The notes below the pieces were generated by a model, which worked only from the letters and a program-made list of their open reading frames with translations, had not been told where the DNA came from and did no database searches. Both the position numbers and the translations under genes were made by a program. From Mobula hypostoma (lineage: Eukaryota), in the NCBI RefSeq assembly GCF_963921235.1, contig NC_086097.1:20958001-21022000 (forward strand): a stretch of DNA of 64,000 bases. Direction: 5' to 3'. Shown piece after piece: positions 3,740-59,699 of this stretch; positions within the stretch are counted from its first letter, which is position 1; every line of letters starts with the position of its first letter.

Positions 3740-5529
3740 TTAATTAGCTTTAAAAGCTCCAAAGAATAATTGTCTTCAGTTTAAGAAAATTATTTGATCC
3801 TTTCTCTCTATAGCATTTGGAACAAAATACAGACCTATGTTTTTTGACTTCTGAGGAAGTACCATATTTGTTCAAAGCCATTCAAACAGAAAGACCATCA
3901 AGACTATAAGACAGAGCAATTTAGGCCATTCAGCCTATCGAGTCTGGCTTGCCATTCTATCATGGCTGATACTATCTATTTAACCCCATTCTCCTGCCTT
4001 CTCTTCATAATCTTTGACATTGTGAATTAGACCTGCTCACAGCAGGAATACAGTGAATGAACTGTAATCGAACATGCTGGCAATACTAACACTGCCCCAG
4101 TTGACCCTCAAAATGGATTCCAATAAATTCTTCCATACTTTGTACTGTCAGAGCCATTTAAAAGAAATATTTCCATAAAGCTCAAAGATGTATTCTATTG
4201 AGAAAAAGGTGTCAGGAGAAGGACAGGTTCATCTATAGCAATTGTTTGTCCAACTTTGTGTTGTTTGCCTTAAGTAGTTTTTCATTGATTCTATTGAGTC
4301 TTTGTATTTATTGTGAATGCCTGCAAGAAAATAATCTCAGTATATGGTGACATATACTTTGATAATAAATTTACTTTGAACATTGAAGTTAAGGATGGAA
4401 AAGTGAAAGAAAAAGCATGAGAGGTTGTAAAGATTAATGGTAGAGTAGACTTTTTAACAAGGTAGCAAAAATAAGAGCAACAAATACAGCAAGACTGCAA
4501 GAGTCTCTACAGGTAGATATAAAAGTGTAATTAAATTAAGCAGTTGCCCTTTAGCAAATAAAACTCAAGAATTTATAGTGGAAAATCAGAAAATGTGAAG
4601 GCTGAACACATCTCGCATCAGTCATCAGGGCAAAGGTTACTAAAAGCATCCCAATATTTTAAAATAACAAGTGAAAATAAAATGAGATACAATCACAGCT
4701 GCTAGCAGACCAATGGGACTAAAGGACAACACTGACCTTTTTTTTTGTATCCTGCCTCACCTCCTGAACATGATCAGTATTTCCTGTTTCCGTTTGTGCA
4801 GGAGAGGGACAAACTAGGAGCCACTCAAGAGAAATGGAAATTTATGGTCGAGGCTGCTATCTTTAAACCATGTCTATGGCAACAAAGAGGAACCTCTTTA
4901 TCTGAATCTCTCCACCCAGTTCTTAGTCTGCAGCCTTTCAGTGAAAATCCCAGGCACATTTTAAAAGTGTGGTGAGTTTCTGCTCCACCAACCTTAGTCA
5001 ATAGTTCTAAACCTTACAGATATGGTGGAAAAAAGTCACTTACAAAAATACTAAGTCATCTTTCCATCAATATATGCCCCACTACTGGCCTCTCTGCTAA
5101 GCCCTTCCTATTCATCTTATCCAGGCCACTCAATGAATTTCCTACTTTGTTTCAAAGCAAACAATGCTTCCCTGGCCATTCTCTCAATAATTCCCCTCTA
5201 TATTCTTATTAATCTCATCACCCAAACACTGGACGCATCCTGTTTGTTGACCAGAAGTGTATGCAGCTGTGACATAACTGGTGTTCAGAATCAGGTTTAT
5301 TATCACCGGCATGTGACGTGAAATCTGTTTTGTACAGATTTAGCGCAACTTCCTCAAACTATGCCTCAGCTAATTAAACACCCTACAAGTTTAACCGTTG
5401 TATCCATTGGCCTTGCTCCCTTCAGAGAAGTTAATATGGACTTCAAGATCCTGTTGTTTGCTTGCAGTTCCTTGAATCTTATTATTTTGCTAATAGCTGT
5501 ACAGAGATCAAGGTCAAAATTTGTCATAT

Positions 5530-6474: not shown

Positions 6475-6529
6475 TTATCGACAAGGCACTCTTGGGATAA
6501 TTTTCATAGGTACGATTAGTCTGAACATC

Positions 6530-9068
6530 CATAGAAACTACAGCACAGAAACCGGCCTTTTGGCCCTTCTTGGCTGTGCCGAACTATTTTCTGCCTAGTC
6601 CCATTGACCTGCACACGGACCATATCCCTCCATACACCTCCCATTCATGTATCTGTCCAATTTATTCCTAAATGTTAAAAAAGAACCCGCATTTACCACC
6701 TCGTCTGGCAGCTCATTCCATACTCCCACCACTCTGTGTGAAGAAGCCCCCACTAATGTTCCCTTTAAACTCCCCCCCCCCATCCTAAACCCATGTCCTC
6801 TGGTTTTTTTCTCCCCTTGCCTCAGTGGAAAAAGCCTGCTTGCATTCACTCTATCTATATCCACCATAATTTTATATACCTCTATCAAATCTCCCCTCAT
6901 TCTTCTACGCTCCAGGGAATAAAGTCCTAACCTATTCAACCTTTCTCTGTAACTGAGTTTCTCAAGTCCTGGCAACATCCTTCTAAACCTTCTCTGCACT
7001 CTTTCAACCTTATTTATATCCTTCCTGTAACTTGGTGACCAAAACTGAACACAATACTCCAGATTCGGCCTCACCAATGCCTTATACAACCTCATCATAA
7101 CATTCCAGCTCTTATACTCAATACTTTGATTAATAAAGGCCAATGTACCAAAAGCTCTCTTTACGACCCTATCTACCTGTGACGCCACTTTTAGGGAATT
7201 TTGTATCTGTATTCCCTGATCCCTCTGTTCCACTGCACTCCTCAGTGCCTTACCATTAACCCTGTATGTTCTACGTTGGTTTGTCCTTCCAACGTGCAAT
7301 ACCTCACACTTGTCAGTATTAAACTCCATCTACCATTTTTTAGCCCATTTTTCCAGCTGGTCCAAGTCCTTCTGCAGGCTCTGAAAACCTTCCTCACTGT
7401 CTACTACACCTCCAATCTTTGTATCATCAGCAAACTTGCTGATCCAATTTACCATATTATCATCCAGATCATTGATATAGATGACAAATAACAATGGACC
7501 CAGCACTGATCCCTGTGGCACACCACTAGTCACAGGCCTCCACTCAGAGAAGCAATTCTCTATCACCACTCTCTGGCTTCTTCCATCAAGCCAATGTCTA
7601 ATCCAATTTACCACCTTTCCATGTATACCTAGCGACTGAATTTTCCCAACTAACCTCCCATGCGGGACCTTGTCAAAGGCCTTACTGAAGTCCATGTAGA
7701 CAATATCCACTGCCTTCCCTTCATCCACTTTCCTGGTAACCTCCTCGAAAAACTCCAATAGATTGGTCAAACATGACCTACCACGCACAAAGTCATGTTG
7801 ACTCTCCCTAATAAGTCCCAGTCTATCCAAATGCTTGTAGATTCTGTCTCTTAGTACTCCCTCCAATAACTCACCTACTACCGACGTTAAACTTACTGGC
7901 CTATAATTTCCCGGATTACTTTTCGATCCTTTTTTAAACAACGGAACAACATGAGCCACTCTCCAATCCTCCGGCACCTCACCTGTAGACAGCGACATTT
8001 TAAATATTTCAGCCAGGGCCCCTGCAATTTCAACACTAGTCTCCTTCAAGGTCCGAGGGAACACCCTGTCAGGTCCCGGGGATTTAGCTACTTTAATTTT
8101 CCTCAAGACAGCAAGGACCTCCTCCTTTTTGATCTGTACAGTTTCCATGATCTCACTACTCGTTTCCCTTAATTCCATAGACTTCATGCCAGTTTCCTTA
8201 GTAAACACAGACGCAAAAAACTTATTTAAGATCTCCCCCATTTCCTTTGGTTCCGCACATAGCCAACCACTCTGATCTTCAAGAGGGCCAATTTTATCCC
8301 TTACAATCTTTTTGCTCTTAATATACCTGTGAAAGCTCTTTGGATTATCCTTCACTTTGACTGCCAAGGCAACCTCATGTCTTCTTTTAGCCCTCTTGAT
8401 TTCTTTCTTAAGTATTTTCTTGCACTTCTTATACTCCTCAAGCACCTTATTTACTCCCTGCTTCCTATACACGTCATACAACTCCCTCTTCTTCTTTATC
8501 AGAGTTGCAATATCCCTTGAGAACCAAGGTTCCTTATTCCTATTCACCTTGCCTTTAATTCTGACAGGAACATACAAATTCTGCACTCTCAAAATTTCTG
8601 CTTTGAAGGCTTCCCACCTACCGATCACATCCATGCCAGAGAACAACCTGTCCCAATCCACACTTTTTAGATCCTTTCTCATTTCTTCAAATTTGGCCTT
8701 CTTCCAGTTAAGAACCTCAACCCTAGGACCAGATCTATCCTTGTCCATGATCAAGTTGAAACTAATGGTGTTTTGATCACTGGAACCAAAGCGCTCCCCT
8801 ACACAGACTTCTGTCACTTGTCCTAACTCGTTTCCTAACAGGAGATCCAATATTGCATCCCCTCTAGTTGGTCCCTCTATATATTGATTTAGAAAACTTT
8901 CCTGAACACATTTTACAAACTCCAAACCATCTAGACCCTTAACAGTATGGGAGACCCAATCAATATATGGAAAATTAAAATCCCCTACCACCACAACTTT
9001 ATGTTTCCTGCAGTTGCCTGCTATCTCTCTGCAGATTTGCACTTCCAATTCTCTTTGACTATTGGGTA
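6530..9068 (-). mobile_element. CR1 LINE, young and 5'-truncated. Near-intact ORF2 (end of APE domain, RT, C-terminus) with one in-frame stop at 7330 and a late frameshift
   Basis: ORFs 7330-9156 and 6595-7329 share a frame. Motifs GDFNFP, NYRPVSLTS, YMDFSKAFDKVPH, GVPQGSVLGP, KFADDTK. CR1-type tttctatg tail. Confidence 0.95.
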
Positions 9069-9349
9069 TCCAATATCCGTATCCGTAGTACCCTTTTTCA
9101 CTACCATCAGTCAGGAGGAGCAGAAGTCTTAGGTCCCACATCACTAGGTTCAGCAATAGATACTACCCCTACAACTATCAGGTTCCTAAAATGGCATGGA
9201 TATCTTCATCCACCACTATTCTAAACTGATTCTACAACCTACAGTCCACTTTCAAAAACTCTTGCAACTCAAGTTCTTGGTACTATCTTTTTCCAATTTG
9301 CACAATTTGTCTTCTTTTGGACATTGGTTATTTGTCAGAATTTATGTAC

Positions 9350-18576: not shown

Positions 18577-20113
18577 AATCATAGAAACCATAGAAAAACT
18601 ACAGCACAGAAACAGGCCTTTTGGCCCTTCTTGGCTGTGCCGAACCATTTTCTGCCTAGTCCCACTGACCTGCACACGGACCATATCCCTCCATACACCT
18701 CCCATCCATGTATCTGTCCAATTTATTCTTAAATGTTAAAAAAGAACCCGCATTTACCACCTCGTCTGGCAGCTCATTACATACTCCCACCACTCCGTGT
18801 GAAGAAGCCCCCTCCTAATGTTCCCTTTAAACTTTTCCCCCCTCACCCTTAACCCATGTCCTCTGGTTTTTTTTCCACCCCTTGCCTCAGTGGAAAAAGC
18901 CTGCTTGCATTCACTCTATCTATATCCATCATAATTTTATATACCTCTATCAAATCTCCCCTCATTCTTCTACGCTCCAGGGAATAAAGTCCTAACCTAT
19001 TCAACCTTTCTCTGTAACTGAGTTTCTCAAGTCCTGGCAACATCCTTCTAAACCTTCTCTGCATTTTTTCAACCTTATTAATATCCTTCCTGTAATTTGG
19101 TGACCAAAATTGAACATAATACTCCAGATTCAGCCTCACCAGTGCCTTATACAACCTCATCAAAACATTCCAGCACTTATACTCAATACTTTGATTAATA
19201 AAGGCCAATGTACCAAAAGCTCTCTTTACGACCCTATCTACCTGTGACGCCACTTTTAGGGAATTTTGTATCTGTATTCCTCGATCCCTCTGTTCCACTG
19301 TACTCCTCAGTGCCTTACCATTTACCCTGTATGTTCTACATCGGTTTGTCCTTCCAAAGTGCAATACCTCACACTTGTCTGTATTAAACTCCATCTGCCA
19401 TTTTTCAGCCCATGCTTCCAGCTGGTCCAAGTCCCTCTGCAGGCTTTGAAAACCTTCCTCACTGTCCACTGCACCTCCAATCTTTGTATCATCAGCAAAT
19501 TTGCTGACCCAATTTACCACATCATCATCCAGATGATTGATATAGATGACAAATAATAATGGACACAGCACTGATCCCTGTGACACACCACTAGTCACAG
19601 GCCTCCACTCAGAGAAGCAATTCTCTACCACCACTCTTTGACTTCTTCCATTGAGCCAATGTCTAATCCAATTTACCACTTCTCCATGTATACCTAGTGA
19701 CTGAATTTTCCTAACTAACCTCCTATGCGGGACCTTGTCAAAGGCCTTACTGAAGTCCATGTAGACAACATCCACTGCCTTCCCTTCATCCACTTTCCCG
19801 GTAACCTCCTCGAAAAACTCCAATAGATTGGTCAAACATGACCTACCACGCACAAAGCCATGTTGACTCTCCCTAATAAGTCCCTGTCTATCCAAATGCT
19901 TGTAGCTTCTGTCTCTTAGTACTCCCTCCAATAACTTATCCACTACCGACGTCAAACTTACCGGCCTATAATTTCCCTGGATTACTTTTCGATCCTTTTT
20001 TAAACAACGAACAACATGAGCCACTCTCCAATCCTCTGGCACCTCACCCGTAGACACCGACTTTTTAAATATATCTGCCAGTGCCCCTGCAATTTCAACA
20101 CTAGTCTCCTTCA
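18577..20113 (-). mobile_element. CR1 LINE, young and 5'-truncated, same subfamily as 6530-9068
   Basis: 422-aa RT ORF at 18849-20117. Near-identical by eye to ~6530-8050. Repeated tttctatg tail. Confidence 0.95.
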
Positions 20114-22879
20114 ACATCCATTATCTGTCACATTTAAAGCCCTCCCCACCATTGGACACATCTACAAGGAGCCCTGATGCTGGAAAGCAGGATCTATCAT
20201 CAAGGAACCCACCAAGGCTATGCTCCCTTATTACTGCCATTAGGGAGGTGGCACAGGAGCCTTAGATCCCACTCCAGAGTCAGGAATAGTTATTACCCTT
20301 CAACCACTGGACTCCTGAAAGAGTGGATAATTTCATACACCATGACTGAATTGATTCCACAACTTACAGACTCATTTTCAAAGATCCTACAACTAATATT
20401 CACAATATTATTACTATTATGGTATTTATTTTTGCATTTGCACAATTTGTCATCTTTCGCACATTGGTTGTTGTCCATCTTTGTTGTGTGCAATTTATCA
20501 TTAATTCTATTGTGTTTCTTTGTCTTTATTGTGAATGCCTACAAGAAAATGAATCTCAGGGTAATATGATGATGCATGTACTTTGATAATACATTTACTT
20601 TGATCAGAAGTAATCCCAGCTGGGGATCTTATAGTAAAGTTAAAATAAATTATCTTAAATGATTAAACTGTCATAAAGGTTTTCTTCTTCAAATAAATTT
20701 ACTTTCCTTGCCATCCCAGTCTAGAAGAATTTGAAATGCCACTAATTAATTTGGCTTCAAACTACCGAAGAAATTAACCTAGATGTTAATGATTGGTGTC
20801 CAATTAAATTCTCAGACCAAGTTAGTCACCTGATGCCATTACTCTGTGTATGTTCCACAAACAAGAGCCAACTATTCTAAGATTTGATTCCAGAGATGAC
20901 TGGGCACAGGAGTTATCTTTATGGTGCAGATCAGTGTAGATTTTATCTTGAGAATGGGTAGTGAAACTCGCAAAATAAGATACAAAATTAATCCAAATGA
21001 CAGCAAGCTGCCTAAAAGTGCAAAAGATTTGGATCAGGAAGTATTGCTGCCAAATTTGATCAGTCACTTGCTCCCATTAGACCTGTAATATTTTGGTCTT
21101 CACAACACATATCAAGTAGTGGCTCCAATTTTAGGATGGCAATGGGAGGACACACTTGTGGAAAAAGACTTCCATCATGGTTCAACAGAAAATTGTGGAC
21201 AATGTGGTCAGCATGAATGAGTGGGCTGAAGATCCTGTATCACTACCTTAACAGTATAAGAATTCAAGATCAGTTACCCCACTGTACTTCTTGCTCACAA
21301 CAGCAACTCCTAATTACAGAAACAACTGGGGATAATCATATCCTGAAGGCTGGGTGTGGCAGCTCCCATATCCCCAATTTTGTTCAGTACAAGAACAGCA
21401 AACATGAACCAAATACTTAAAATTTCAGATCAAAGACCAAGATCATCAGCTAAGAGATTAAAAGATTCACTCTTCACAAATGCTGGCAGGCCTGCCAAAA
21501 ATATCCAGCATTTTACTCTTTCTTTCAGGTTTTCAGCATCTGCAGCAGTGCTCTTTTGAATTCAGGTAGCTATAAACATTTATGATATTAAATAGTCTCC
21601 AAGGCTTATTGAAAGGAACTCTCAAAAGTTGGATGATGACATTATAAAAGATTAATGCTACTGAATTGAATTGACTTTACTTCTTACATCCTTCACATAC
21701 TTGAAGAGTAAAAAATCGTAATGTCACGTGGTTAGTTACCTTGGAAAAAACTGGAAAGGTTTACACACAACAGGTTAAAAATGGTGAAATGTAAATTTAG
21801 AATTGATGCAATCAAGTCAGAAGGTCAAAACTCCTCTACCTGGTTCTCTACTGCTATAACATTACCCAAATTCCTTAGAAGCCTCCATGTCAAAAGCCTC
21901 ACTAATCGGTGGTAGGAGGGAAGATAGTTTATTCAAAGCCTAAATCAAGCTCCAGTTGGTTAATTTGATTTATTGTTTATTTAACTGTTAAAGTACATGC
22001 AAGTCCTAAATCTTGACAAACAAGGTTCTACTCATGAATTTGAAATTGAGATGGATAAGGTAAATGTTCTCAATTCATATCCATTTTGTGAAGTACAAAT
22101 CAGAATAAAAGATAATACAAACTCTTTTCAAGAATGAAGGAAGTAAAGCAAATTCATTAAAAGTTGTTTGGTTACTTTTTGGAATGAAGAGGCCAGCTGG
22201 CTTTGGCCAGATTTCTGTTTTTACATCAACAGCAATCAAGTCAGTAGTATGTTCTTCCTGCGGGGAAACTTCAGAACAATGCATTTTTAGACATCTTATT
22301 CTCGGAAAAATTTAAATAAATATGGTAAGTGAGGAAAACCCACTGATAAATGCAAACTACATCCCTCCACCCAAACAGCAGTGAATCACAATCTCACGAC
22401 TTACTGTAAACCTCAACTCATTTAGGAAAGAGATAAATCTTTGCCATGTCCTGCAAAACACGTTATACTTCAAATGACGACAGTTCAGTGGCTATAATGG
22501 CAATCTAAAAACAATTGTATTTCTGTTTTCCTACTTTATATTCTAACGTTATAATCTTACAATGAATTCAGTATTTGCTAATAATACTGGATATAAATAG
22601 AGAATAGTTTACCTTTTATCCAACTGCACTTCAAAATCACTATCTACATTTTAAGCACTCAATACTGCAGCCTGAAAGGATAATTACACTCCTCAGCAGA
22701 GCCCCAGCTATCATCACATCCTTTTAATTATAGCAAGTTTCGTTCTGACAAAGCTATGTAATTAGAAAAAAGAACATTCTTCACCTAACTGCATCAATAA
22801 GTTGTGTGGCTGAATCTGAGGGGATGCCATACAGTTCCTTGATGCCAGACAGAATCAAGGTGGAAGGAGGCAACATAAT

Positions 22880-26647: not shown

Positions 26648-28698
26648 ACTACTGCAACACCAGGAGTGAGGACCGAGAAAGTATGGACAGGGGAAGCACA
26701 GGAGCACCTAAAGGATTGCTTTGAATCAGTGGAGTGGACTGTATTCAGAGATTCATCTTCGAACCTGGATGAATATGCTGCAGTTGTTATCCACTTCATT
26801 AAAACTTGTGTGGATGAAGCAGGAGGTACGTTGTCTGCTGAAGGCTAGATCTGTGGCATTCAAGTCTGGCAACCCAGGCCTGTACCAGAAAACCAGGTAT
26901 GATTTGCAGAGGGCTATTTCAAGGGCGAAGAGACAATTTCGAATGAGGTTGGAGATGACATCAATTGTTCGGCAACTCTGACAGAGTTTGCAAGACATTA
27001 CTTCCTACAAAATGAAACCCAATAGCATGAATAGCAGTGATGCTTCACTACCAGATGAATTCAATGCCTTCTATGCCCACTTTGAAAGGAAGATCACAAC
27101 TACAGCTGTGAAGATCCCTGCTGCACCTGATGACCCTATGATCTGTCTCAGAGGCCGATGTTAGGCTGTCTTTAAAGAGAGTGAACCTTCGCAAGGTGGA
27201 AGGTCCCGAAAAACCTGGTAAGACTCTGAAAACCTATGCTAACCAACTGGTGGGAGTATTCAAGGACATTTTCAACCTCTCACTGCTGAGGGCGGAAGTT
27301 CCCACTTGCTTCAAAAAGGCAACAATTATACCAGTGCCCAAGAAGAATAATGTGAGCTGCCTTAATGACTATTACCTGGTAGCACTCTCATTGACAGTGA
27401 TGAAATGCTTTGAGAGGTTGGTCATGACTAGACTGAACTCCTGCCTCAGCAAGGGCCTGGACACATTGGGATTTGCCTATCGCCACAATAGGTCAACAGC
27501 AGACGCAATCCCAATGGCTCTTTACACTGCTTTAGACCACCTGGATAACACAAACACCCATGTTAAGATGCTGTTCATTGACTATAGCAGAGCATTTAAT
27601 ACCATCATTCCCACAATCCTGATTGAGAAGTTACAGAACCTGAGCCCCTGTACCTCCCTCTGCAATTGGATCCTCGATTTCCTAACCAGAAGACCACAAT
27701 CTGTGTGGATTGGAGATAACATATCCTCCTCACTGACTATCAACACTGGCACACCTCAGGAGTGTGCTTTTCCCACTGTTCTAGTCTCTATATACACATG
27801 ACTATGTGGCTAGGCACAGCTCAAATGCCACCTATAAATTTGATGATACAACTATTGTTGGTAGAATCTCAGATGGTGATGAGAGGGCGTACAGGAGTGA
27901 GATATGCCAACTAGCGGAATGGTGCAGCAGCAAAAACCTGGCACTCAACGTCAGTAACACGAAAGAGCTGATAGTGAACTTCAGGAAGGGCAAGATGAAG
28001 GAACTCATACTAATCCTCAGAGGATCAGAAGTGGAGAGGGTGAGCAGTTTCAAGTTCCTGCAAAGATCTGAGAATCTAATCTGGTCTCAACATATCGATG
28101 TAGTTATAAAGAAGGCAAGACAGTGGCTATACTTCATTGGGAGTTTGAAGAGATTTGGCTTGTCAACAAATACACTCAAAAACTTCTATAGATGTACTGT
28201 GGAGAGCATTCAGACAGGCTGCATCACTGTCTGATACTGCACAGGTCCGAAAGAAGCTGCAGAGGGTTCAAAATCTAGTCAGCTCCATCTTGGGTACCAG
28301 CCTACAAAGTACCCAGGACATCTTCAGGGAGCGGTGTCTCAGAAAGGCAGTGTCCATTATTAAGGACCTCCAGCACCCAGGGCATGCTCTTTTCTCAATG
28401 TTACCATCAGCAGGAGGTACAGAACCCTGAAGGCACACACTCAGTGATTCAAGAACAGCTTCTTCCCTTCTGCCATCCGATTCCTAAATGGACATTGAAC
28501 CCTTGGACACTACCTCATTTTTTTAATATAGAGTATTTGTTTTTTTGCACAATTAAAAAAAATCTATTCAATATAGATATACTACAATTGATTTACTTAT
28601 TTATTTTTTCCTCTTCTATATTATGTATTGCATTGAACTGCTACTGTCAAGTTAACAAATTTCACTTCACATGCTGGTGATAATAAACCTGATTCTGA
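26648..28698 (+). mobile_element. Rex1/Babar-clade LINE, 5'-truncated and degenerate
   Basis: Peptides [73 protein letters not shown]. Tail aataaacctgattctgat. Confidence 0.92.
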
Positions 28699-34545: not shown

Positions 34546-37307
34546 TCACAGAAAGATGAATGCTATCACCTCCTATAAAACAAAACCAAGCAACATGTGA
34601 CAAGGTTTCGCTCCCAGATGAGTTCAATGACTTATGCTTGATTGGCCAACAGAACAGAAGCACTTTCACGAACTCCCACAGGCCCAGAGGATCCTGCACT
34701 CTGTCTCCAAGGCTGACGCAAGATCGTTCTTCAGGAGGGTGAACCCACAGAAAGCATCTGGCCCAGAAGGGAGGGTAAAGTGCTGACTGAAGCACAACAC
34801 CAACACACAAAGTGGGCAAATCTGTATCAGAAATCTGAATGCATTTTACACAAGACTTTTGGATGCAGTATTTCTACAAAAGTGGAATAAATGTAATTCT
34901 GCCAGTCACAACCCAATCTACTCTGATTCAAATCAATGGATCATTTTGCTTAAGTGCTATCAAGTACCCAATCACAACTGACTGTGTTCCTCATTAGTCA
35001 CATTACAATGCTGTTATGGAAAATACATGTTGCCACCGCATAGAGAAAAGGAAGCATTTTGTTCATCTAGTAGAGCTATGGATTTCATCTCCCAATAAGC
35101 AACATTTCCTCATGCAGTTATTTCAAGACAAGCAATTACAATTTGAAGACTTTAAACCCTCAATTGTCACAGTTGCCAGCAGACTACAAGGAAAATTTAA
35201 ATTGATCACCAGTAAACTTAAGTATTCTGCATATCCACTTAAGTGATCAGCTCAAATATCCATGCGCTGATGTGTGGAATGAATCATTTTTGCCATGAGA
35301 GTGCTGACGTGACTACCGACCATGAGCTGAAAGCATACTTTGCTCATGAGAATGCAGAAAAATTTCACTGACTGTAGTTACCTTCTCTGCTCGCCGTCTT
35401 GGGAGATGACGCGTTTGCAGATTTGGGGCAAAGGAAGGTGGTCAGAAACTAAACGACAGTTCAGCAAGGTTCCAGACTGCACATGCTGCACCTGTCTACA
35501 CAATATTACATGCTCTAACAGAATGGCAAATCCTTTCCCTAAACAGCACATCTGCCCTGAAAACAAAGTGGTATTTTATCAGGCTACAAGTATTTCTTTC
35601 CAGTTATGTTCAACAATGATGCTATTGATACAAAGCAGTAACAGACTACGCAAGGTTATTAGTGTAGTTAACATTAGAAACCTAGAACCATGTTGTGGGA
35701 TGGGCTAAATGGAGAGGCAAGTCCTGTCCTTCCAGTCAAATATTTTCATATTGATCTTACCAAAACTAGACCCTCTATGCTAGATCAGGCTGCTGCTCTG
35801 GTTCAATGATATACACTAACCAAATGAACAGATTTATAGCTGGACACAACTGTTTAGTTTTCCACCTGCAATTAAAATTGCAAATTGCAATCAACATACA
35901 AAATGGAGCACACTGACACACCTTTCACTCCCACGAAACTAGGAGAGTTACTTTTTAAATAAGCACCATACATACTGAAAGAGGCATGTATTTCGTGATT
36001 CTCAACAGCTACCTGGCACATATTCACAGGGCTGGATATGTCTGTTTCATGTTAACCCCAAAAAATGCTCATTAGAACCTTGGATACATCTTGTTACTGC
36101 TTTGTTTCAATTGCCACCATTGAGTATTGTTCAATGAAACTGGAAAATATACCAAAAGCCTGATAAAAACACTTTTGTTTTCAAGGCAGATGCTCTGTTC
36201 AGAAAATTAATTTTATTACTGCAAGACCCAACAAATATTGTGCAAGCAGATGTAGCACCTGTATACTGAAACTTGACAAACTGGTTTGGTTTTTGGTAGA
36301 GAAAAAATATAGACAGTATTCTATTAAAGGAAATTTTTGATAGGTGGGATTTTAAAAATATCCCATTCAGTTATGCACTGACAGCCATCACCCTATACCC
36401 TAGCAACATTGAGGTTGTGAAATGATTATTGATAAACCTATGAGTACAAGTCTGAAACAAATCAGGCAGGAACAAAAAGACTATGAGACTGGTGCAGAAT
36501 TGGGCCATTTGGCCCATCAAGTCTGTTCCACCATACCAGTATCCCTCTCAACCTCATTCTTCCGCCTTCTCCTTGTAACCTTTGGCAGCCTAATTAATCA
36601 AGCTATCGACCTCCCACTTTAAATATACTTTAAAATGACTTGGCTGCCACAACCGTCTGTGACAGATTCACTATCCTTTGGCTAAAGAAATTTCACATCT
36701 GTTTTAAATGGATTTATTTCTATTCTGAGGATGTGCTCTCTGGTCTTGGCTAAAGGAAACATCCTCTCCACATTTACTCTATCCAGGCCTTTCAATATTC
36801 GATAGGCTTCAAAGAGAGCTCCCTCATTTTTCTAAACTCCAGGGTTCATTCTTGTAAACCACCTCTGGACTTTCCCCAATACCAGAACATCCTTTCTTAG
36901 ATAAGGGGCTAAGGCTGTTCATAATACTCCAAGTGCTGTGCGAGTCTCAGTATTATATCCTTCCAAAGATATTGCACTGAGACAATTTCTATTTTTAATA
37001 ACATTGGAGTAATATTACTCTGCTTTAAACTAAATGACAAAATTGGAAGGAACCTGATTGTTAATGGATTCAATATTTCCTCTCCCCCCCCCCACATTTG
37101 GCAATACAATATCTGGCACTGATGAAGTAATTACTGAGATTCATAAGTGCAACGCTGAAATGGAAGCATTGTACCATTATGTCACAAGCTGCAGAAGCTG
37201 CATCTTCTGATACAGAAGATGGGATAATTATTTTAAATTGTAAAGGGCCCACATATTGATTCTGTAAATTAGTAGAGTACTTTTTATTCAAACTCCAACC
37301 CCCAAAA

Positions 37308-37818
37308 TGGTGTATGGGGTGACCAGGAAGAGGCAGCATCTCTGATGAAGGGACTTATTGTGTCCATTCCACAGCAACTCACTCACTTTTGGTCCCCACA
37401 GGACACTCTGCTCTCACTTGTGGCTCCAAGTAGCTGTTTTCATGCAACAGTCACCATACCCTGATACACTTTTGACAGGCAGGCTAAGGGTAGCCGGCAG
37501 CTTCACATCCTGTTGAGGTAGGACATGCCTGCTTTGGTATGCAAAGTCAGTTCCGGCAGACTGAGCGAATGAGATCTACAGTGAGATCCACCGGCCAGGA
37601 AGGTGATACTGCCACGCTCCATGAAGAGTGAAAAGCATGACAAGGCACAAAAGACATCATGGTCATTCAGTGCAACCAAGTTCCCATTTTGTGACACTTG
37701 TTCATATGACTGGACCAGGACTCGAGGTCAAGAGTGGAACTGTCTCAGGGCAATGGCTTTTCCACTTTAAAAGCTCTCCCACACAGTTTCCTGTCATCAG
37801 ACAGGATAGACAACTACA
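37308..37818 (+). mobile_element. Older, diverged copy of the non-coding RTE-related element at 53432-53993
   Basis: Collinear motifs ggtgtatggggtg, ttggtccccac, ctctcac(c/t)tgtggctcc, tagctgttt.catg, ggctaa and gacaag.cacagaagac. Confidence 0.7.
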
Positions 37819-39376
37819 CCCCCCCTCCCCCCCAAAAACAGACGAAGTTTTGAGCTTTTGTTTTAGGTATCCACTTTCCTCGTACTAATGATGATTGAAG
37901 ATGTAAACAAAATGCATACTTCAGCACAGGAAAGAATGCAATGGCCGGGTTCAAATTGCAAGCAATTCCTCAGACGTTCCAGCAGCGAGGCAACTATGAA
38001 TTCATGATATTTAGCCTTTACAACTAGCTTATATGTACTGATCAATATCTGTGCATGATCGTAGACAATACAAGGAAGCATAACATGAACAACTCCACTC
38101 AAAACTATCCTGCAAGTTATATCAAAACTGGCAACATGAACACTAAATAAACACACTGAAACAATTCTTTGCCCTGTTTCTGGACCTCAATAGGTTAGCT
38201 GGCAACACTTCCATCTGATTTACCTGCATGTTCAAGGTAAATAAGAGGCATTGTTGGGAAGTTAAATCTTCCCTCCATTGCAATGCTGAGGGCCAGTCAC
38301 CCTATACCTCTTCTTGCTGGGTATTAAAAAGATAGGAATTCTAAGACATTGCTGTTTTTAGTAAGCACACGTTAAAACTACAGAATTACAATGATACAAT
38401 CATTTTTGGAGACTAAAAATCAATGTCAATCCCAGAAAAGAGGACTTTTTATTAATTCAAACCTCGATCTATTCCACATTTTCCCCAAAAACATTTCCAG
38501 GGAACAAACTTACTCCCAGAATCACTCCAATTCATTATCGCTGATGATTAAATTTCACCATCTCAGAAATCCACACCGATTTAAATGCACACCAGACAGC
38601 TCAAAAGAAAAAGGGTAAAGACAATGTTTTAACAGTGCAGAGAAAGCTGTGTGGATTCCTTGTCCTCTGAGAATACAACAAACTTGTTTATACTTCATGT
38701 AAATTCTTACCACCTGTGCTCTCAACGCTAGCTGTATTCCTACACCAATTAAGGTACAGGATGCGTGCTGATCACACAATTGAAAGCATAAACAGCAACA
38801 TTTCTGTACTGCTAAGGGTTCATAAATCTGCAAAATGTTAAGCTTTGCCTACAAATTTGCTTATCTAAACTCCCATCATGTACCAATAATGCTCCCCAGT
38901 CACTGTCACCCAAAAATGCAAGTTTCTGGCTGTTATTTTCATAGTTGTGGTATAACATCTTTGTATACAGCCAGTGAATGAAAGGCTCAAGTTCAAAGTA
39001 AATTATCAAAGTAGATACATGTTGCCATATATTACCAAGATTCATTTTCTTGCAGGAATTCACTTCTTTCCCACCTGTCCCACACCCCTCCAACAGCACA
39101 CACCCTGACCATACCCATTGTTTTCTCCTGACAGATTTCCAAATTCACTCTCCACTTCACGTCGACAAATACAGCACTCTAGCCAAAGTCTGAAGCACCC
39201 GAGCCATACGTGCTAAGAATTTTGTACAGTATCGTCACCACATACTACCCCAAGATTCATTTTCTCACAGGCATTCTCAGTAGATGCAAAGAAACAATAG
39301 AATTAATGAAATACTACACACAAAGCTTGACAATGTGCAAAAAACTGACAGAATATGCAAAGACAAAAAATAACAA

Positions 39377-45009: not shown

Positions 45010-45227
45010 CAAACAACAGGAATTCTGCAGATGCTGGAAATTCAAGCAACACACATCAAAGTTGCTGGTGAACGCAGCAGGCCAGGCAGCATCTATAGGA
45101 AGAGGCGCAGACGACGTTTCAGGCCGAGACCTTGACGAAGGGTCTCGGCCTGAAACGTCGACTGCGCCTCTTCCTATAGATGCTGCCTGGCCTGCTGCGT
45201 TCACCAGCAACTTTGATGTGTGTTGCT
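45010..45227. mobile_element. Fold-back (palindromic) PLE terminal-repeat insertion
   Basis: ~87-bp arms 45045-45131 and 45141-45227 with one mismatch. 14-bp TSD agtataatgtagta at 44996-45009 and 45228-45241. Confidence 0.9.
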
Positions 45228-48207: not shown

Positions 48208-50687
48208 AGAACGTAGAATAGTACAGCACAGTACAGGCCCTTCGGCCTACAATGTCATGCCGACCCTCAAACCCTGCCTCCCATATAACTCCCCACCTTA
48301 AGTTCCTCCATATACCTGTCTGGTGGTCTCTTAAACTTCACTAGTGTATCTGATTCAGGCACTGCATTCCACGCACCAACCACTGAGTAAAAAACCTTCC
48401 TCTAATATCCCCCTTGAACTTCCCACCCCTTACCTTAAAGCCATGTCCTCTTGTATTGAGCAGTGGTGCCCTGGGGAAGAGGCGCTGGCTATCCACTCTA
48501 TCTATTCCTCTTATTATCTTGTACACCTTTATCATGTCTCCTCTCATCCTCCTTCTCTCCAAAGAATAAAGCCCGAGCTCCCTTAACCTCTGATCATATT
48601 ACACACTCTCTAAACCAGGTAGCATTCTGGTAAATCTCCTCTGTACCATTTCCAATGCTTCCACATTCTTCCTATAGTGAGGCGACCAGAACTGGACACA
48701 GTACTCCAAGTGTGGCTGAACCAGTTTTATAGAGCTGCATCATTACATCGCGACTCTTAAACTCTATCCCTCGACTTATGAAAGCTAACACCTCATAAGC
48801 TTTCTTAACTACCCTATCTACCTGTGAGGCAACTTTCAGGGTTCTGTGGACATGTACCAGATCCCTCTGCTCCTCCACACTACCAGGTATCCTGCCATTT
48901 ACTTTGTACTCTGCCTTGGAGATTGTCCTTCCAAAGTGTACCACCTCACACTTCTCAGGGTTGAACTCCATCTGCCACCTTTCAGCCCACTTCTGCATCC
49001 TATTAATGTCTCGCTGCAATCTTCGACAATCCTCTACACTATCTACAACACCACCAACCTATGTGTCATCTGCAAACTTGCCAACCCACCCTTCTACCCC
49101 CACATCCAGGTCGTTAATAAAAATCACAAAGTAACGGTCCCAGAACAGACCCTTGTGGGACACTAGTCACAATCCTCCAATCTGAATGTACTCCCTCCAC
49201 CACGGCCCTCTGCCTTCTGCAGGCAAGCCAATTCTGAATCCACCTGGCCAAACTTCCCTGGATCCCATGCCTTCTGACTTTCTGAATAAGCCTACCGTGT
49301 GGAACCTTGTCAAATGCCTTAATAAAATCCATATAGATTACATCCACTGCACTACCCTCATCTATATGCCTGGTCACCTCCTCAAAGAACCCTATCAGGC
49401 TTGTTAGATGCGATCTGCCCTTCACAAAGCCATGCTGACTGTCCCTGATCAGATCATGATTCTCTAAATGCCCATAGGTCCTATCTCTAAGAATCTTTTC
49501 TAACAGCTTGTCCACCACAGAAATAAGGCTCACTGGTCTATAATTACCTGGACTATCCCTATTAACTTTTATGAACAAGGGGACAACATTCGCCTCCCTC
49601 CAGTCCTCTGGTACCATTCCCATCGACAATGAGGACATAAAGATCCTAGTCAGAGGCTCAGCAGTCTCTTCCCTCGCCTCATGGAGCAGCCTGGGGTATA
49701 TTCCGTCAGCCCCGGGGACTTACCCATCCTAATGTATTTTAACAACTCCAACACCTCCTCTCTCTCTTAATATCAACATGCTCCAGAACATCAACCTCAC
49801 TCATATTGTCCTCACCATCAAGTTCCCTCTCATTGGTGAATACCCAAGAGAAGTATTCATTGAGGACCTCGCTCACTTCCACAGCCTCCAGGCACATCTT
49901 CCCACCTTTATCTCTAATCGGTCCTACTTTCACTCCTGTCATCCTTTTGTTCTTCACATAATTGAAGAATGCGTTGCGGTTTTCCTTTACCCTACTCGCC
50001 AAGCCCTTCTCATGCCCCCTTCTTGCTCTTCTCAGCCCCTTCTTAAGCTCCTTTCTTGCTTCCCTATATTCCTCAACAGACCCATTTGATCCTTGCTTCC
50101 TAAACCTCATGTATGCTGCCTTCTTCCACCTGATTAGATTTTCCACCTCACTTGTCACCCATGGTTCCTTCACCCTACCATTCTTTATCTTCCTCACCAG
50201 GACAAATTTATCCCTAACATCCTGCAAGAGATCTCTAAACATCCACCACATGTCCATAGTACATTTCCCTGCAAAAACATCATCCCAATTCATACCCGCA
50301 AATTCTAGCCTTATAGCCTCATAATTTGCCCTTCCCCAATTAAAAATTTTCCTGTCATCTCTGATTCTATCCTTTTCCATGATAATGTTAAAGGCCAGGG
50401 AGCAGTGGTCACTGTCCCCCAGATGCTCACCCACTGAGAGATCTGTGACCTGACTCGGTTCATTACCTAGTTCTAGATCTATTATGGCATTCCCCCTAGT
50501 CGGCCTGTCCACATACTGTGACAGGAATCCGTCCTGGACCCACTTAAACTCTGCCCTATCTAAACCCTTGGAGCTAATCAGGTGCCAATCAAAATTAGGG
50601 AAGTTAAAGTCACCCACGATAACAACCCTGTCGTTTTTGCACCTTTCCAAAATCTGCCTCCCAATCTGCTCCTCTGTATCTCTGCTC
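48208..50687 (-). mobile_element. CR1 LINE, 5'-truncated and frameshifted
   Basis: ORFs with VGDFNFP, NYRPVSL, YMDFIKAFDKVPH and PQGSVLGPLL. 7-bp tactctt repeat at 48201-48207 and 50688-50694. Confidence 0.93.
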
Positions 50688-53431
50688 TACTCTTGGCTTA
50701 TTGCCTCTAAATAGTCACTCTTTAATCTTCAAATTCAGGATGTTATTACATATGAAACTCAGGCCTCAATGAAACAAAATTCTGGGCTACTTGTGTGCTC
50801 CATAAATCCCTGTATTAAAAATAAATAGACAGATACAAGAAGAACTTTATTGGGAAAAGTTCTTTCACATCATTGTAATATCCTAAACCATACTGTAGCC
50901 AAAGAACTTCACATCCTAAGTAAACAATTTATGCTTACTTCACAAGTCACATTCAGTTTGGTCACAATTTTTAAATTATTCATTTCTAGATACCTCTGAC
51001 TTAACCCGTTTCCATTTCTAACATCCATGCCACGTGCTCAATTCTGGTTTACTTAAATTATCCCAATGTTGCCGGCAATGGCTTTAGCTGCCCAGAGATT
51101 CAGCCCACAATTCATTTCCTCAAACACTCATGGTTGGACCTTTCAAACTCTGAAACCTTGGTTCGAAGTGGGGGAATCTAGGACCAGAGGGCACAGCCTC
51201 AGAATACAAAGACATCCTTTTAGAACAGGGAGAAAGAAGAATTTACTTAGCTAGAGGATGGTGAATCTGTGCAATTCATTGCCACAGAAAGCACTGGATG
51301 CCAAGTCATTGGGTATATTTAAAGCGGAGGTTGATAGGTTCTTGATTAGCAAGCAAATCAAAAATTATGGGGTTGATGGAGAAAAAAAAATCAGCGATGA
51401 TTGATTGGCGGAATAGACTTGATGTGCTGAATGATCCAATTCTGCTCCTATGCCTTAGGGTCTTAAACAGTTTGTTGTAACTGTTACAGTCACCAGTTTT
51501 GAACATGAAAAATTAAGACAACACTTCTATTGATCGTATCCTGACTGGTTGCATCATGCATTGGTATGGCAATTTGTAGACAGGAATGCAAGCTCCAGAG
51601 AGCAGTGGACACAGCCCAATACATTACAGGTCCATCCCTCCCACCATTTTTAAAGTAACTACAGGAGGCTCTGGCTCAAGGCAACATACAAATATCCCCA
51701 TCTGAACCGTGCCATATGGTCCCAGCCACCATCAGGCAGGAAGTGTAGTAGCCGGTCCATCCCACTTGACCAAGAACATTTACTTCCCTTCAACCACTTG
51801 GTTCTTGAACCAAACTACAAAATCCCAGTCACTACAGTTTAGCAACACCATGACCCCTTTGCACTAAAATGGACTTTGTTCTAATTGTGTTCTTCCTTGT
51901 GGAAAAAAAAGTATGTCTTAGTGAATGCGGCTTGTAAGATGTTGTGTGCCTGTGATGCTGCTGCAGGGTTTTCAGTGCACTTATGCACACAAGCTCACCT
52001 TTGAAATAAGTCAAATGTTCTGTGAATTGTACTTGTCTTTTAGGCACTTGGATTTTTTTTTTAAAAGAGGAAAGCACTTATCGAACTAAAATTTACAATC
52101 AAAGTAACCTTGCCAAGCAGGATATAGGTCAATGACTTTTTGGAGCTCCAACATTACCATCTATGCCAAGTGTGTGGTGCAAGTATTGTTTTTATTTCAA
52201 GCTTCCAGCACAGGATTTTCCCTCTGCAGCTCATTGTCATGCGATCAATAGCACTCAAGATTTTGAAGATAACATCTTAATTCAGACTTCCATTATCCCA
52301 TTTATGTAAAAAAAAATGATTGCTTCACAATATGAAAAAAATCACAATTGGAGCAAATACTTTTCAATGCAAAATGGCCAATAAAGTTGAAATCTTTAAT
52401 AGTAAGATTTGCATATCTAATAACAGCTCTGGCCTGGAAGTGCATTTTTTTGGGAATGCAGTCACTGTTATCTCATGAACAAAGAAACCAACTTCTCTAA
52501 ACAGCCAACCTAGTGTGATCTTGATCAGACATTTTGGTATCAAGGTTTTGATAAGACAAAACTGTCAGGTAGATTGCTGTTTGAGATGGCAGTCTTATTG
52601 TGCCAAGTGACTCAGTATTAAAAATAGCTCCTCGTTAATCAAAATAATTACTTTTAATTATCAGCTTTTCCTGACAATTAAAGCATTAGTAATTACAAGA
52701 GCATTGCATGATCTTTCAAAGTTACAAATGCACTGACAGTTAGCTTGCCAAGATACCAACAGACTTTTTCAGTCATTTCACTTTCCTGGACAAATTTGAA
52801 CAAAAAGCATGAGAATTTAATGGCAAATACTATTCACTGTCTCTATCACTCCTGCAATCAAATACACATTTTCATTAATGCCTGAGTGAGTTTTAAGCCT
52901 GATATGATGTTGAGCTCTTTGGCCACATCTGCACCCATTTTCTTGGCATGGAATCCTCACACCCCTGCTCTGCTGATGACCCCTTCTTATTTCAAGCAAA
53001 TCCCTTCCACTTGGATTCTCCTTTCTGGCCTTTTATCTACTTGATCTTTATTTCCAATTGATGTGATGCTGACCGTCTTCAGACTTCTCCACCCTCAACC
53101 CCTCCCCAAACTTGCAGCACTCTACTCACTTAAGACCAATCTCGACCTAGTCAGAACAGCTGCTTAAGTCTTGTGCATTGACCTCTACTTTGGAGGCCAG
53201 GTGCCAGCCACATGAGATCTTGTACTTCTCAGAACACCAGAGCATCTTCCAGGCCATTACAAATCAGGAGATCTCACCTGATTGGAGATCGAGTCTCCAA
53301 CTTTGGTGCCCCAAAACAGTCTGCTTTAATTTCTTATCCAACATCCACAGGACTGGTGGGCCTCTTTCTGCCCCACTAAACTTATTCCTTCACATGTCCT
53401 TAATTTTGTTAACTCCAACCAGCTTATCTTT

Positions 53432-53632
53432 GGGGTGTATGGGGTGTCAGGGAGGGGTAGCACCTCTGGTGGGGTAACATGTCACGTCCTTTTCAAGGCG
53501 ATTAGTCCACCTTTGGTCCCCACCTGGCACTCAGCTCTCACCTGTGGCTCCCTGTAGCTGTTTGCATGTGACAGCGGCCACACCCCAGGCAACGGCTTCG
53601 ACAAGCCAGCTAAACCAGGTGAGGGTAGCTGA
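53432..53632 (+). ncRNA. Predicted HDV-like self-cleaving ribozyme
   Basis: P1 GGGGUGU (53432-38) / ACACCCC (53580-86). P2 CUCACCUG (53537-44) / CAGGUGAG (53616-23), extended by UCAGCU/AGCUGA. P3 GGC (53546-48) / GCC (53577-79). L3 starts UCC; after P1 comes AGGCAAC; P4 GGCUU/AAGCC; J4/2 GCUAA with candidate catalytic C53610. Confidence 0.7.
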
Positions 53633-53993
53633 CGGGTCTCAAACCCTCGGTGAGATAGGGAGTTGTCCATCCCAGCACATGAAGACAGACTCCGGCGGAT
53701 TAAGCGGACAAGACCAATGGAAGGTCCAACGGTCAAGAAGGCGGTCTCTGCAAGCGTCGTGGAACGTGTAGAGCAGGACAAGACACAGAAGACGTCCTGG
53801 TCATCCACTGCGCCTAGTCCCATCTCCAGCCGTCTCGACTCTGTCTTGCCACTGGATCCAGATGGGAATTGGGAAGAGAGAGCGAGGCTGACACTGAGCA
53901 ACTCTCCCTCACTTAAATCCAAATCACGCGCTAGTCTCGACACCATCAATAATGGTGTCGAGGTCCTCATCGACGTACGATGGACGAACAACA
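53432..53993 (+). mobile_element. Non-coding RTE-related retroelement (structured 5' UTR-like head, 3' stem-loop and CAA tail)
   Basis: atcttt direct repeat at 53426-53431 and 53994-53999. 11-bp stem-loop ctcgacaccat/atggtgtcgag at 53936-53962; aacaaca tail. CpG-rich. The head resembles recalled RTE 5' UTRs. Confidence 0.75.
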
Positions 53994-54144
53994 ATCTTTA
54001 CCATGGACATCCGTTCTCTACGTATACCACTTCCATCAAAAAGGCATTACCTTCTTGAACAAAGACCTGACCAATTCCACTCCACTAACACTTAACTGCA
54101 TAACAATAATCAGAATCAGGTTTACTATCACTGTAGTACATAGC

Positions 54145-55471: not shown

Positions 55472-55646
55472 AACAAAATGCTGGAGGAACTCAGCAGGCC
55501 AGGCAGCATCTATGAAAAAGTGTACAGTCAATGTCTCGGCCTGAAATGTCAACTGTATTCCTTTCCATAGTTGCTGCCTGGCCTGCTGAGTTCCTCCAGT
55601 ATTGTGTGTTACTTGGATATCCAGCATCTGCAGATTTTCTCTTGTT
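55472..55646. mobile_element. Older fold-back PLE terminal-repeat insertion
   Basis: Inverted arms tgctggaggaactcagcaggccaggcagca / tgctgcctggcctgctgagttcctccag. 14-bp imperfect TSD tcagc(cg/tt)tcagaga at 55458-55471 and 55647-55660. Confidence 0.8.
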
Positions 55647-56539
55647 TCAGCTTTCAGAGATGTGATCCTAAAGTACAGGCTGCCCACAACCATTTCAGGT
55701 TTTCCTTAGAGTTAGAGGTAAAAGAAAGTCAAGTAAAAACAAACGAGATAAAGGAAGGAGATGACACAATGTCCAGAAGTGACACTGATTTGAAGCAAAC
55801 CGCACCTTCAAGGGATGTTCCTTTTGCTTTGGTAAAGCAACAGTGATATGTTAATACTGTAAACTATTAATGCATCCATTATCAGAATCAGGTTTATTAT
55901 CACTGACATATGCTTATTGTCAGCAGTTCAGTGCAAGACAAAAGTTAAAATTTAAAAGAGTTTCAAAAGGAATTGCAGGGTAGTATTCGTGGACTTTTCA
56001 AAAATCTGATGTCCGAGGAGAATCTGTACCTAAATTGTTGAGGTCAGTCCTCAAGCTCCTATACCTCATCCACAAAGGTAGTGATGAGAAGAAGCCCCAT
56101 ATTCTGCACTGTATCCCAATAAATAAATGCCCCACAGTCATTGACAAGGCTGACATGGCACCAGCTTTCAAGGGATAAGGTAATTAACAAAATAGCACCT
56201 GACCATTAAAACTTCCACAATAGTGCTCGCCTTCAATCACCAACTTATTCTCTCAACACTATTAAAAATTAAAGCAATTGTTTCTGAAGCAGTAATAATA
56301 ACCACTGCATCATCCGGGACCAACTGAGTCCTTTCTCAGACTTTGAGTCGAAAACAGGAAACATGAATTCACTCCAGAGCCTTGCCGGGAAACCCCTTCC
56401 TCATTACTTGACTCTTGCAAGATTCAAAAGAAAGCCCATCTTCATTTATTCATTTCCAAGATAAATATCTTTCTTCGTAAAGCCCATGTATATAGATTTT
56501 TCACCTTTTACCCACAGTACTTTCAAAAACTTATTTACT

Positions 56540-58849: not shown

Positions 58850-59341
58850 CATCGTCATCATCGGGTGCTGTGCCCAGTTTGAGCTCTGATTGCCGTGGCC
58901 CACACACTCCTGTTTTGGGTCAAGTGGATCAATTCATTAGTATTCATTTCCAGTTCTCTGGCTGCTGTCTCCATCATCATTTGTCTTTGTCTTCCTCTTG
59001 CTTTCTTCCCTTCAATCTTTCCCATAATTACCATGCATTCTAACTCCTCTTTCCTAATCACATGTCCAATGAAGTTACGTTGCCTTTTCATGATCTCATA
59101 CATTATTTCTCTTTTTGTGCTTGCTCTGTTCATGACATCCTTGTTAGATATTCGTTTCTTCCACAATATTCTTTGCATCCTCCTCAAAAACCACATCACT
59201 GCTGCTTCAATTCGTTTCCTCATGTTACTAGATATTGTCCAACATTCTGAGCCATACAACATAACTGGATAAATGCAACATTTCAGTACTCTGAGGTGGG
59301 TTGTCATGCCTAGTTTAGTATTGGTCAGTATACTCTTATAC
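58850..59341 (-). mobile_element. RTE-clade LINE 3' end
   Basis: ORF 58858-59307 (PVMLYGSECWT...WFLRRM...FIGHVIRK...GKIEGKKARGRQR). (GAT)n tail. 10-bp TSD agatttctct at 58840-58849 and 59342-59351. Confidence 0.9.
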
Positions 59342-59699
59342 AGATTTCTCTGCTACTTCATAATCAGCAGACACTATCACCAATCTTTAAAAAGATAACA
59401 CTATGCATTTTCTTAAATTTCAGGAAGCAGCCTGATAAATATTCACAATTACTTTCGATTTTCAGTTTGTCGTGATAGATGCTTGCTTGCTTCATGACCA
59501 GCATACTGTTGTGGCTTATGTTCACTCCAAAGCTGACAAATCCACTCTTTCAAAGCACATTCGAGACCTTCACTTTTCACTTCATGCAGTGTTTTGCTAT
59601 TTTGCATTAACTTCATTACTGTCAGCATAGAACTTTAAAAGTTTGCCCCTCTATTCCTTCAAGTCGTAGATGGCAGTCGCTCCCACACCACTAAATAAG

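Follow-up and report, generated by a model that had tools for sequence, protein, structure and literature searches.

A dispersed, protein-free RTE element of Mobula hypostoma with a putative HDV-like ribozyme head and a hairpin in L3

HDV-like ribozymes have been predicted in RTE elements (PMC5786205, PMC6765202). A ribozyme head joined to a LINE 3' end, with no protein encoded, is described for R2 SIDEs and R2/R1 hybrid SIDEs (PMC3414825) and for NARTc and SIDERs (PMC4035085), and the element reported here has the same layout. Like this element, the bipartite ORF-absent RTE LINEs RTESINE1/2, MAR4_MD, WALLSI3, RTE-N2_Lch and Bov-A combine a 5'UTR with an RTE 3' end (Kojima, 2018; PMC5786205). 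With R2 SIDEs, NARTc and bipartite RTE elements on record, a ribozyme-headed, protein-free LINE derivative is an already published concept. As far as the cited passages go, SIDEs are rare and rDNA-bound and NARTc and SIDERs are trypanosomatid, whereas our family, called family A, is dispersed with thousands of candidates. The passages that describe SIDEs, NARTc and SIDERs mention no insertion in L3 (PMC3414825, PMC4035085). L3 has 7-8 nt in HDV and CPEB3, according to the part of the CPEB3 report used here (bioRxiv 2022.09.22.508989), and 28 nt in the present element. The feature of interest here is the L3 insertion, together with its probable long-range partner.

The window is the whole 64,000-nt stretch of Mobula hypostoma DNA that was analysed (contig NC_086097.1). 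A non-autonomous bipartite RTE element of 562 nt occupies 53432-53993 on its plus strand, between two copies of a 6-bp target site duplication (53426-53431 and 53994-53999). An earlier note, made from the letters alone, had called the locus a non-coding, protein-free, RTE-related element whose first base, G1, directly follows a flanking repeat. Both statements were borne out: the element is RTE-derived, its autonomous parent was located, and its 5' boundary is G1, the base after the first of the two repeats. Pfam gave no match for the 92-codon plus-strand frame or the 171-codon minus-strand frame, and ARAGORN over the window came back empty, indicating no tRNA-derived head. Downstream of the head and the strand proposed below as its long-range partner lies the remaining parental 5'UTR (53681-53948), including a domain conserved in RTE LINEs of many animals. 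It is followed by an 11-bp junction hairpin (53936-53962) and by an RTE 3' terminal stem-loop (53963-53985) with a CAA-type tail ending at 53993. An older, decayed copy of sister family B, with the same head and a different tail, lies on the plus strand at 37307-37820 (end approximate).

RTE 5'UTRs are conserved across distant animals. Positions 53789-53938 of the window (element 358-507) are about 91-93% identical over 150 nt, counted by eye, to positions 370-519 in the 5'UTR of the turtle element RTE-11_PSi, as given in the part of the Kojima material consulted; this likeness would reflect either horizontal transfer or strong structural constraint. In the same material, RTE-2_CPB and MAR4_MD match the element at similar offsets, and RTE-1_PSi and RTE-3_AMi match its 3' end. 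Overall, in that supplement the counterparts of the element's 3' half are RTE 5'UTRs and those of its last 40 nt are RTE 3' ends; the comparison covers the 5'UTR and 3' end, outside the head region. Judged from sequence features, namely parent-derived ends, absence of a protein and of a tRNA head, target duplications and tail, the element belongs to the bipartite RTE class.

The earlier note had also listed the segments of an HDV-type ribozyme in canonical order, and these were recovered at the same coordinates. P1 pairs 53432-53438 with 53580-53586 (7 bp), and G1, its first base, is both the predicted cleavage site and the family 5' boundary. J1/2 follows (53439-53533), with P1.2-like nested stems, the inner one carrying compensatory changes. 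P2 is extended, pairing 53534-53545 with 53614-53626 (12 bp plus a conserved bulged C53616), and P3 pairs 53546-53548 with 53577-53579. L3 spans 53549-53576 (28 nt). Its first eight bases (53549-53556) read as a complete L3, containing U53549, the P1.1 cytosines 53550-53551 and G53554. The 3' strands of P3, P1 and P1.1 run without interruption from 53577 to 53588, where 53587-53588 complete P1.1. P4 (6 bp) occupies 53593-53608, and J4/2 (53609-53613) holds the putative catalytic C53610. Further hairpins are predicted at 53629-53650 and at 53654-53671 (P6). An identical copy of the P1 5' heptamer lies at 53441-53447, sequestered within a J1/2 stem in the predicted fold. The note's description of J1/2 as about 95 nt and structured was correct, its description as unusual was not: drz-Agam-2 combines a structured J1/2 with a 12-bp P2 in an activating arrangement, as here (PMC4908430), and J1/2 in silkmoth R2 is longer, 216-498 nt (PMC3774820), both according to the passages cited. 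A long J1/2 is therefore ordinary.

We searched with a relaxed descriptor: a 7-bp P1 starting from G, a 3-bp P3, an L3 starting U-C-pyrimidine and up to 35 nt long, a J4/2 with cytosine and a 7-bp P2 with one bulge. It matched with G1 at 53432 (53441 is also allowed), P3 at 53546, a 28-nt L3 and C53610. Elsewhere in the window it found one weak, G-U-rich minus-strand site near 55650-55865, which is read as chance. Among dinucleotide shuffles, 1 of 3000 segment shuffles and none of 6 whole-window shuffles matched. The descriptor fits 23/30 copies of family A and 3/30 copies of the old family B; when L3 is limited to 10 nt or less, none of the 30 A or 30 B copies fits. Rfam returned nothing relevant, either with the whole window at gathering score or with 801 nt at E ≤10, only two chance matches. 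The core pattern had no match in viral contigs and prokaryote genomes.

The window copy itself is decayed. A G to A change at 53587 breaks one P1.1 pair, the basal P4 pair is broken at 53608, and the downstream partner strand proposed below has decayed at two positions, 53678-53679. The earlier note had attributed the two odd purines to CpG decay, and the genome copies confirm this: family A has G at 53587 in 27/30 copies and at 53608 in 25/30. Position 53553 (C in 25/30) and position 53569 (C in 23/30) are further sites of such decay, and the family majority restores both predicted purines plus four other head-region positions. With these losses in P1.1, at the base of P4 and in two pairs with the partner strand, the window copy is probably an impaired insertion, slow or dead.

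Sister families provide a test of constraint. Families B and D have the same head and G1 with other tails, the head being shared to about position 380, so that one head serves three tails. None of the 54 core positions (P1, P2, P3, P1.1 and the unpaired active-site bases) differs among the A, B and D majorities (54/54); identity outside the core is 73/95 in J1/2, 10/20 around P4 and 50/79 downstream. P4 keeps six pairs despite three two-sided changes among the family majorities. The unpaired U53549, G53554, G53609, C53610 and A53612-53613 are invariant in the three families while their neighbours vary. Both C-G pairs of P1.1 are present in every family majority, as are the L3 U and G and the J4/2 cytosine and adenines, which we take to be the equivalents of HDV active-site bases. 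The J4/2 cytosine itself is found in 30/30 A, 27/30 B and 23/23 D copies and in 2/2 copies of a more distant lineage, C. Position 53611 is C rather than U in 16/23 D copies.

The covariation set consisted of 16 real copies (4 A, 4 B, 6 D, 2 C), those of A, B and D picked for closeness to the family majority. Pairing is kept in 94.8% of cells and 30 cells show a two-sided change, either value being reached by 0/500 shuffles; slid controls pair at 35-46%. Ten pairs show a two-sided change, a count equalled in 43/500 shuffles. These shuffles ignore relatedness, and the structure tested was derived from the same sequences. Covariation, proposed by the earlier note as a check on P1, P2, P3 and the L3 hairpin, was found in P4, in J1/2 and in the pairing between the L3-hairpin loop and its downstream partner. 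P1, P2, P3 and the hairpin stem are invariant, and P1.1 is likewise without two-sided change; the invariance of P1, P2, P3 and the hairpin stem, as read from these alignments, shows constraint, not pairing. RNAalifold, which is unable to draw pseudoknots, independently recovered J1/2, P2, P3, the L3 hairpin, P4 and P6. It favours a nested fold in which P3 runs into the P1 3' strand, in competition with the pseudoknot.

Taken as a prediction, an HDV-like nested double pseudoknot in the first 195 nt is strongly supported. The head shares with HDV-like ribozymes the order of segments, a 7-bp P1 at the element 5' end, a 3-bp P3, a two-pair P1.1 and the J4/2 cytosine; it differs in its 28-nt L3 with a hairpin, its bulged P2 and its doubled P1 5' heptamer, and its activity is putative. 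It would work like an HDV-like ribozyme in every structural feature but L3 length. Its membership is provisional because L3 has 28 nt versus the typical 7-8 nt and because Rfam gave no match.

The 5' ends of genomic copies bear on the same question. Across the 3.48-Gb genome, family A yielded 4719 first-look candidates, which are not copy numbers; 40 of them were scored, and all 40 were 95-97% identical across almost the full length. Thirty fetched copies, averaging 98.2% identity to the majority, end in CAA repeats; 18 have target duplications scoring at least 7, and 10 of these 18 end at G1 or G1+1. For a census of 5' ends, copies were chosen by the 3' 196 nt alone, which avoids a bias towards full length. 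This gave 40 matches, 13 of them already known (including the window copy); 20 of the other 27 were fetched and 7 left out. The 5' end falls on G1 in 13 of the 32 copies other than that in the window and on positions 3-8 in another 8; the remaining 11 are truncated within the element. An imprecision of a few bases is normal at the 5' end of ribozyme-cut R2 elements, according to the passage cited (PMC3774820). Sequence upstream of G1 is unshared among the 30 A and 23 D copies, and in the independent sequencing run X19 upstream agreement was 0.36 over 73 contigs, G1 being in such contigs a DNA boundary only. Three of the 20 newly fetched copies (L073, L077, L080) are truncated at element positions 84-86, in the 3' arm of the J1/2 stem, possibly a stall of the reverse transcriptase.

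A sharp 5' end would equally be given by a fixed internal start site. The head could then be a non-catalytic structured leader or internal promoter whose resemblance to HDV is vestigial or comes from a nested look-alike fold, a reading consistent with the nested alternative of RNAalifold, the lack of covariation in P1-P3 and the oversize L3. The head of L1Tc doubles as an internal promoter (PMC3383444, PMC4035085), and bipartite LINEs are expected by Kojima to be transcribed by Pol II (PMC5786205), in both cases as stated in the parts of these papers used. However, the boundary falls exactly where a 7-bp helix begins, its other strand lying 150 nt away, and the catalytic-type unpaired bases and both P1.1 pairs do not vary among three families, whereas the bases next to them do. 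Promoter and ribozyme roles can moreover coexist, and we regard a purely non-catalytic head as unlikely.

We return to the reading of the head as an HDV-like ribozyme and to its L3. The earlier note had reported a GCUGU/ACAGC hairpin inserted in L3 at 53557-53575. The hairpin is present there, downstream of the canonical eight-base part of L3; its stem has 6 bp and its loop 7 nt (53563-53569), not 5 bp and 9 nt. The stem is invariant, except that in lineage C and family D one whole pair is missing from both strands, leaving 5 bp. The loop hexamer 53564-53569 is complementary to 53675-53680, 50 nt past P2. P6 (53654-53671), which shows mostly one-sided changes and is absent in lineage C, stands directly before this strand. 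At 53567/53677, families A and B and lineage C have U-A where D has C-G. At these positions family D has G in 23/23 and C in 16/23 copies, the other 7 fitting CpG decay, and C-G is seen in 5/6 D copies of the covariation set. Family X, an autonomous RTE family of the same genome, has no similarity to the head. It too has a hairpin with a 7-nt loop of D type, on a 6-bp stem unrelated to that of the element; 46 nt further on, after a hairpin resembling P6, comes the D-type partner. In family X, loop and partner are found in 13/17 and 15/17 copies, the rest fitting CpG decay; 27/20000 shuffles did as well. In the literature searched, a scope that left Ruminski 2011, Webb 2009, Repbase and patents outside, neither the L3 hairpin nor the loop-downstream pairing is described.

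The hairpin could also be a tolerated passenger, or a local folding aid, in an active HDV-like ribozyme, its loop pairing being coincidental. Across the four lineages only one of the six loop-partner pairs shows a two-sided change, a 6-nt loop finds a partner within 125 nt by chance in 12-15% of stretches, and peripheral domains tune HDV-like ribozymes in the passages cited (PMC4908430). But both strands switch together in D, and X retains loop and partner on its unrelated stem, at the shuffle frequency just given, which makes coincidence improbable. A kissing-loop dimerisation signal, suggested by the self-complementary loop hexamer of A, B and C (self-pairing -8.0 versus -6.6 kcal/mol with the downstream partner in A and B) and by CPEB3 ribozymes that dimerise through L3 palindromes in crystals (bioRxiv 2022.09.22.508989, in the part used), is dropped as very improbable because the loop of D and X is non-palindromic (self-pairing -2.7) and keeps a stronger downstream pairing (-8.0). 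Pairing of the L3-hairpin loop with 53675-53680 is thus the reading we consider likely. Since the headless family X retains loop and partner on an unrelated stem, the hairpin looks like one side of an RTE 5'UTR pseudoknot that runs through the ribozyme.

The origin of the element is plain from its parent, of which six copies, 86-93% alike, were found by the junction pattern. One, L093, is full length (4.06 kb) and reads, in order, element 2-517 at 92%, a broken RTE frame and element 519-558 at 92.5%. The frame aligns to the protein of L088, a family X copy, which has RVT_1 and Exo_endo_phos domains. Since L093 carries both element ends around an RTE frame, the element derives from an autonomous RTE LINE by an internal deletion that spared the first 517 and the last ~45 nt. 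Another parent copy, L094, has its first 299 nt (68-366) in the opposite orientation to the remainder, resembling the 5' inversions produced by twin priming. The arms of the junction hairpin come from the parental 5'UTR (5' arm) and 3'UTR (3' arm), ~3.5 kb apart, with the deletion joint in the loop. In L093 they lie at 561-600 and 4071-4125, and family X (L086-L088) has complementary arms of different sequence in the same places. Complementary 5'UTR/3'UTR arms are also visible by eye in the published portions of RTE-3_AMi, RTE-1_PSi and MAR4_MD that were compared. A 5'UTR-3'UTR helix may guide the deletion; such complementary arms may explain recurrent bipartite deletions.

Family B (L031-L060; 30 copies, 88.1% to the majority) has a CCA-type tail, and family D (L096-L118; 23 copies, 93.8%) a GAC/GAT-type tail; their 5'-end counts are biased because the copies were picked by best head score. 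In hybrid SIDEs the head moved to the tail of another LINE, as described in the passages cited (PMC3414825), and B and D appear to have arisen likewise. A pattern scan of metagenomes gave five loci. Lineage C is made up of two of them, L083 and L085, apparently one insertion; it is a 70-72% relative with the ribozyme core and without the P1 5' strand. A genome search with L083 gave no match, which shows only the seed limit, and the 5'UTR pattern had 0 matches in viral contigs. One metagenome locus links the 5'UTR domain to an RTE-like frame, and this frame led to family X in the Mobula hypostoma genome. A protein search gave many RTE-like proteins. At L081:341-943 an RNase H-bearing element with a tetranucleotide-repeat end is inserted right before the RTE 5'UTR motif.

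Family X has open frames of 1005-1129 codons with endonuclease and RT domains, and its copies are 95-97% alike. It shares element 249-505 (74-77%) and 531-563 (88%), not the head. The long X copies examined have ragged 5' ends running into host-like sequence. As a second ribozyme family X was rejected: its apparent 5' cluster was artefactual, all 11 fetched copies continuing upstream in shared sequence, and its descriptor matches were dismissed for a non-canonical L3 start and a weak P2. Some X copies (L088:1-145, L119, L131-L135; six unlinked loci) start with a host-like coding stretch of variable length, which matches Glyoxalase_4 (E 4e-5) and is methylmalonyl-CoA epimerase-like; another subset has a different, GC-rich 5' end. 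It looks as if the headless family X captured host 5' sequence. On the basis of the six parent copies, X may have supplied protein for family A, because the parent predates the last A burst and X is about as young as A.

Other repeats in the window include LINE fragments with RT domains on the minus strand (6529-9162, 18588-20120, 48365-50686) and two more at 27142-27801 and 58858-59352. Over 1.5 kb, two copies of CR1-like type share 94.5% identity. The fragment at 58858-59352 is RTE-like, and its family has 20892 candidates; it was rejected as partner, having a different tail and no match to the element in a window blast. Palindromic MITE-like repeats at 45045-45227 and 55473-55607 have several partial copies in the window.

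We consider it probable that the parts belong together as a deleted RTE LINE with a G1-cutting HDV-like head and a third knot from an RTE 5'UTR module. In an active source copy the ribozyme would cut at G1 and free the RNA from a longer host transcript; since the RNA would be freed at G1, copies would start there regardless of the upstream DNA. By established LINE biology, the 3' stem-loop and CAA tail would attract an RTE endonuclease-reverse transcriptase acting in trans, which would insert the copy by target priming, the protein being reached, as we infer, through the shared 3' end. The catalytic pocket could still form around the hairpin because it sits after the eighth L3 base. The loop and 53675-53680 would then form a third pseudoknot, an RTE 5'UTR module that exists also without this ribozyme head. 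Probably this module is kept for a function of the element's own: protein binding, cap-independent translation in the parent, or steering of the fold. More tentatively, and a little short of even confidence, the head would be an active three-pseudoknot HDV-like ribozyme whose cleavage can be locked or gated from 50 nt downstream, a portable promoter-free SINE head found on at least three RTE-type tails, with the 5'UTR-3'UTR helix of the parent setting the position of the internal deletion.

If the ribozyme cleaves, a hairpin is tolerated in L3, a loop taken to be a fixed active-site component of 7-8 nt, and Rfam and short-L3 descriptors miss a high-copy vertebrate class of HDV-like ribozymes. 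Through the third knot one could ask directly if cleavage is gated by downstream RNA, or coupled by it to translation or to the binding of protein. RTE UTRs, e.g., of RTE-1_MD, are used in RNA-templated gene writing, according to the passages cited (PMC13708176), and a structure map of the 5'UTR would aid RTE-based gene writing. The parent, the three tail-swapped derivatives and the headless sister family, all in one genome, bear on why RTE often spawns bipartite elements (Kojima, 2018).
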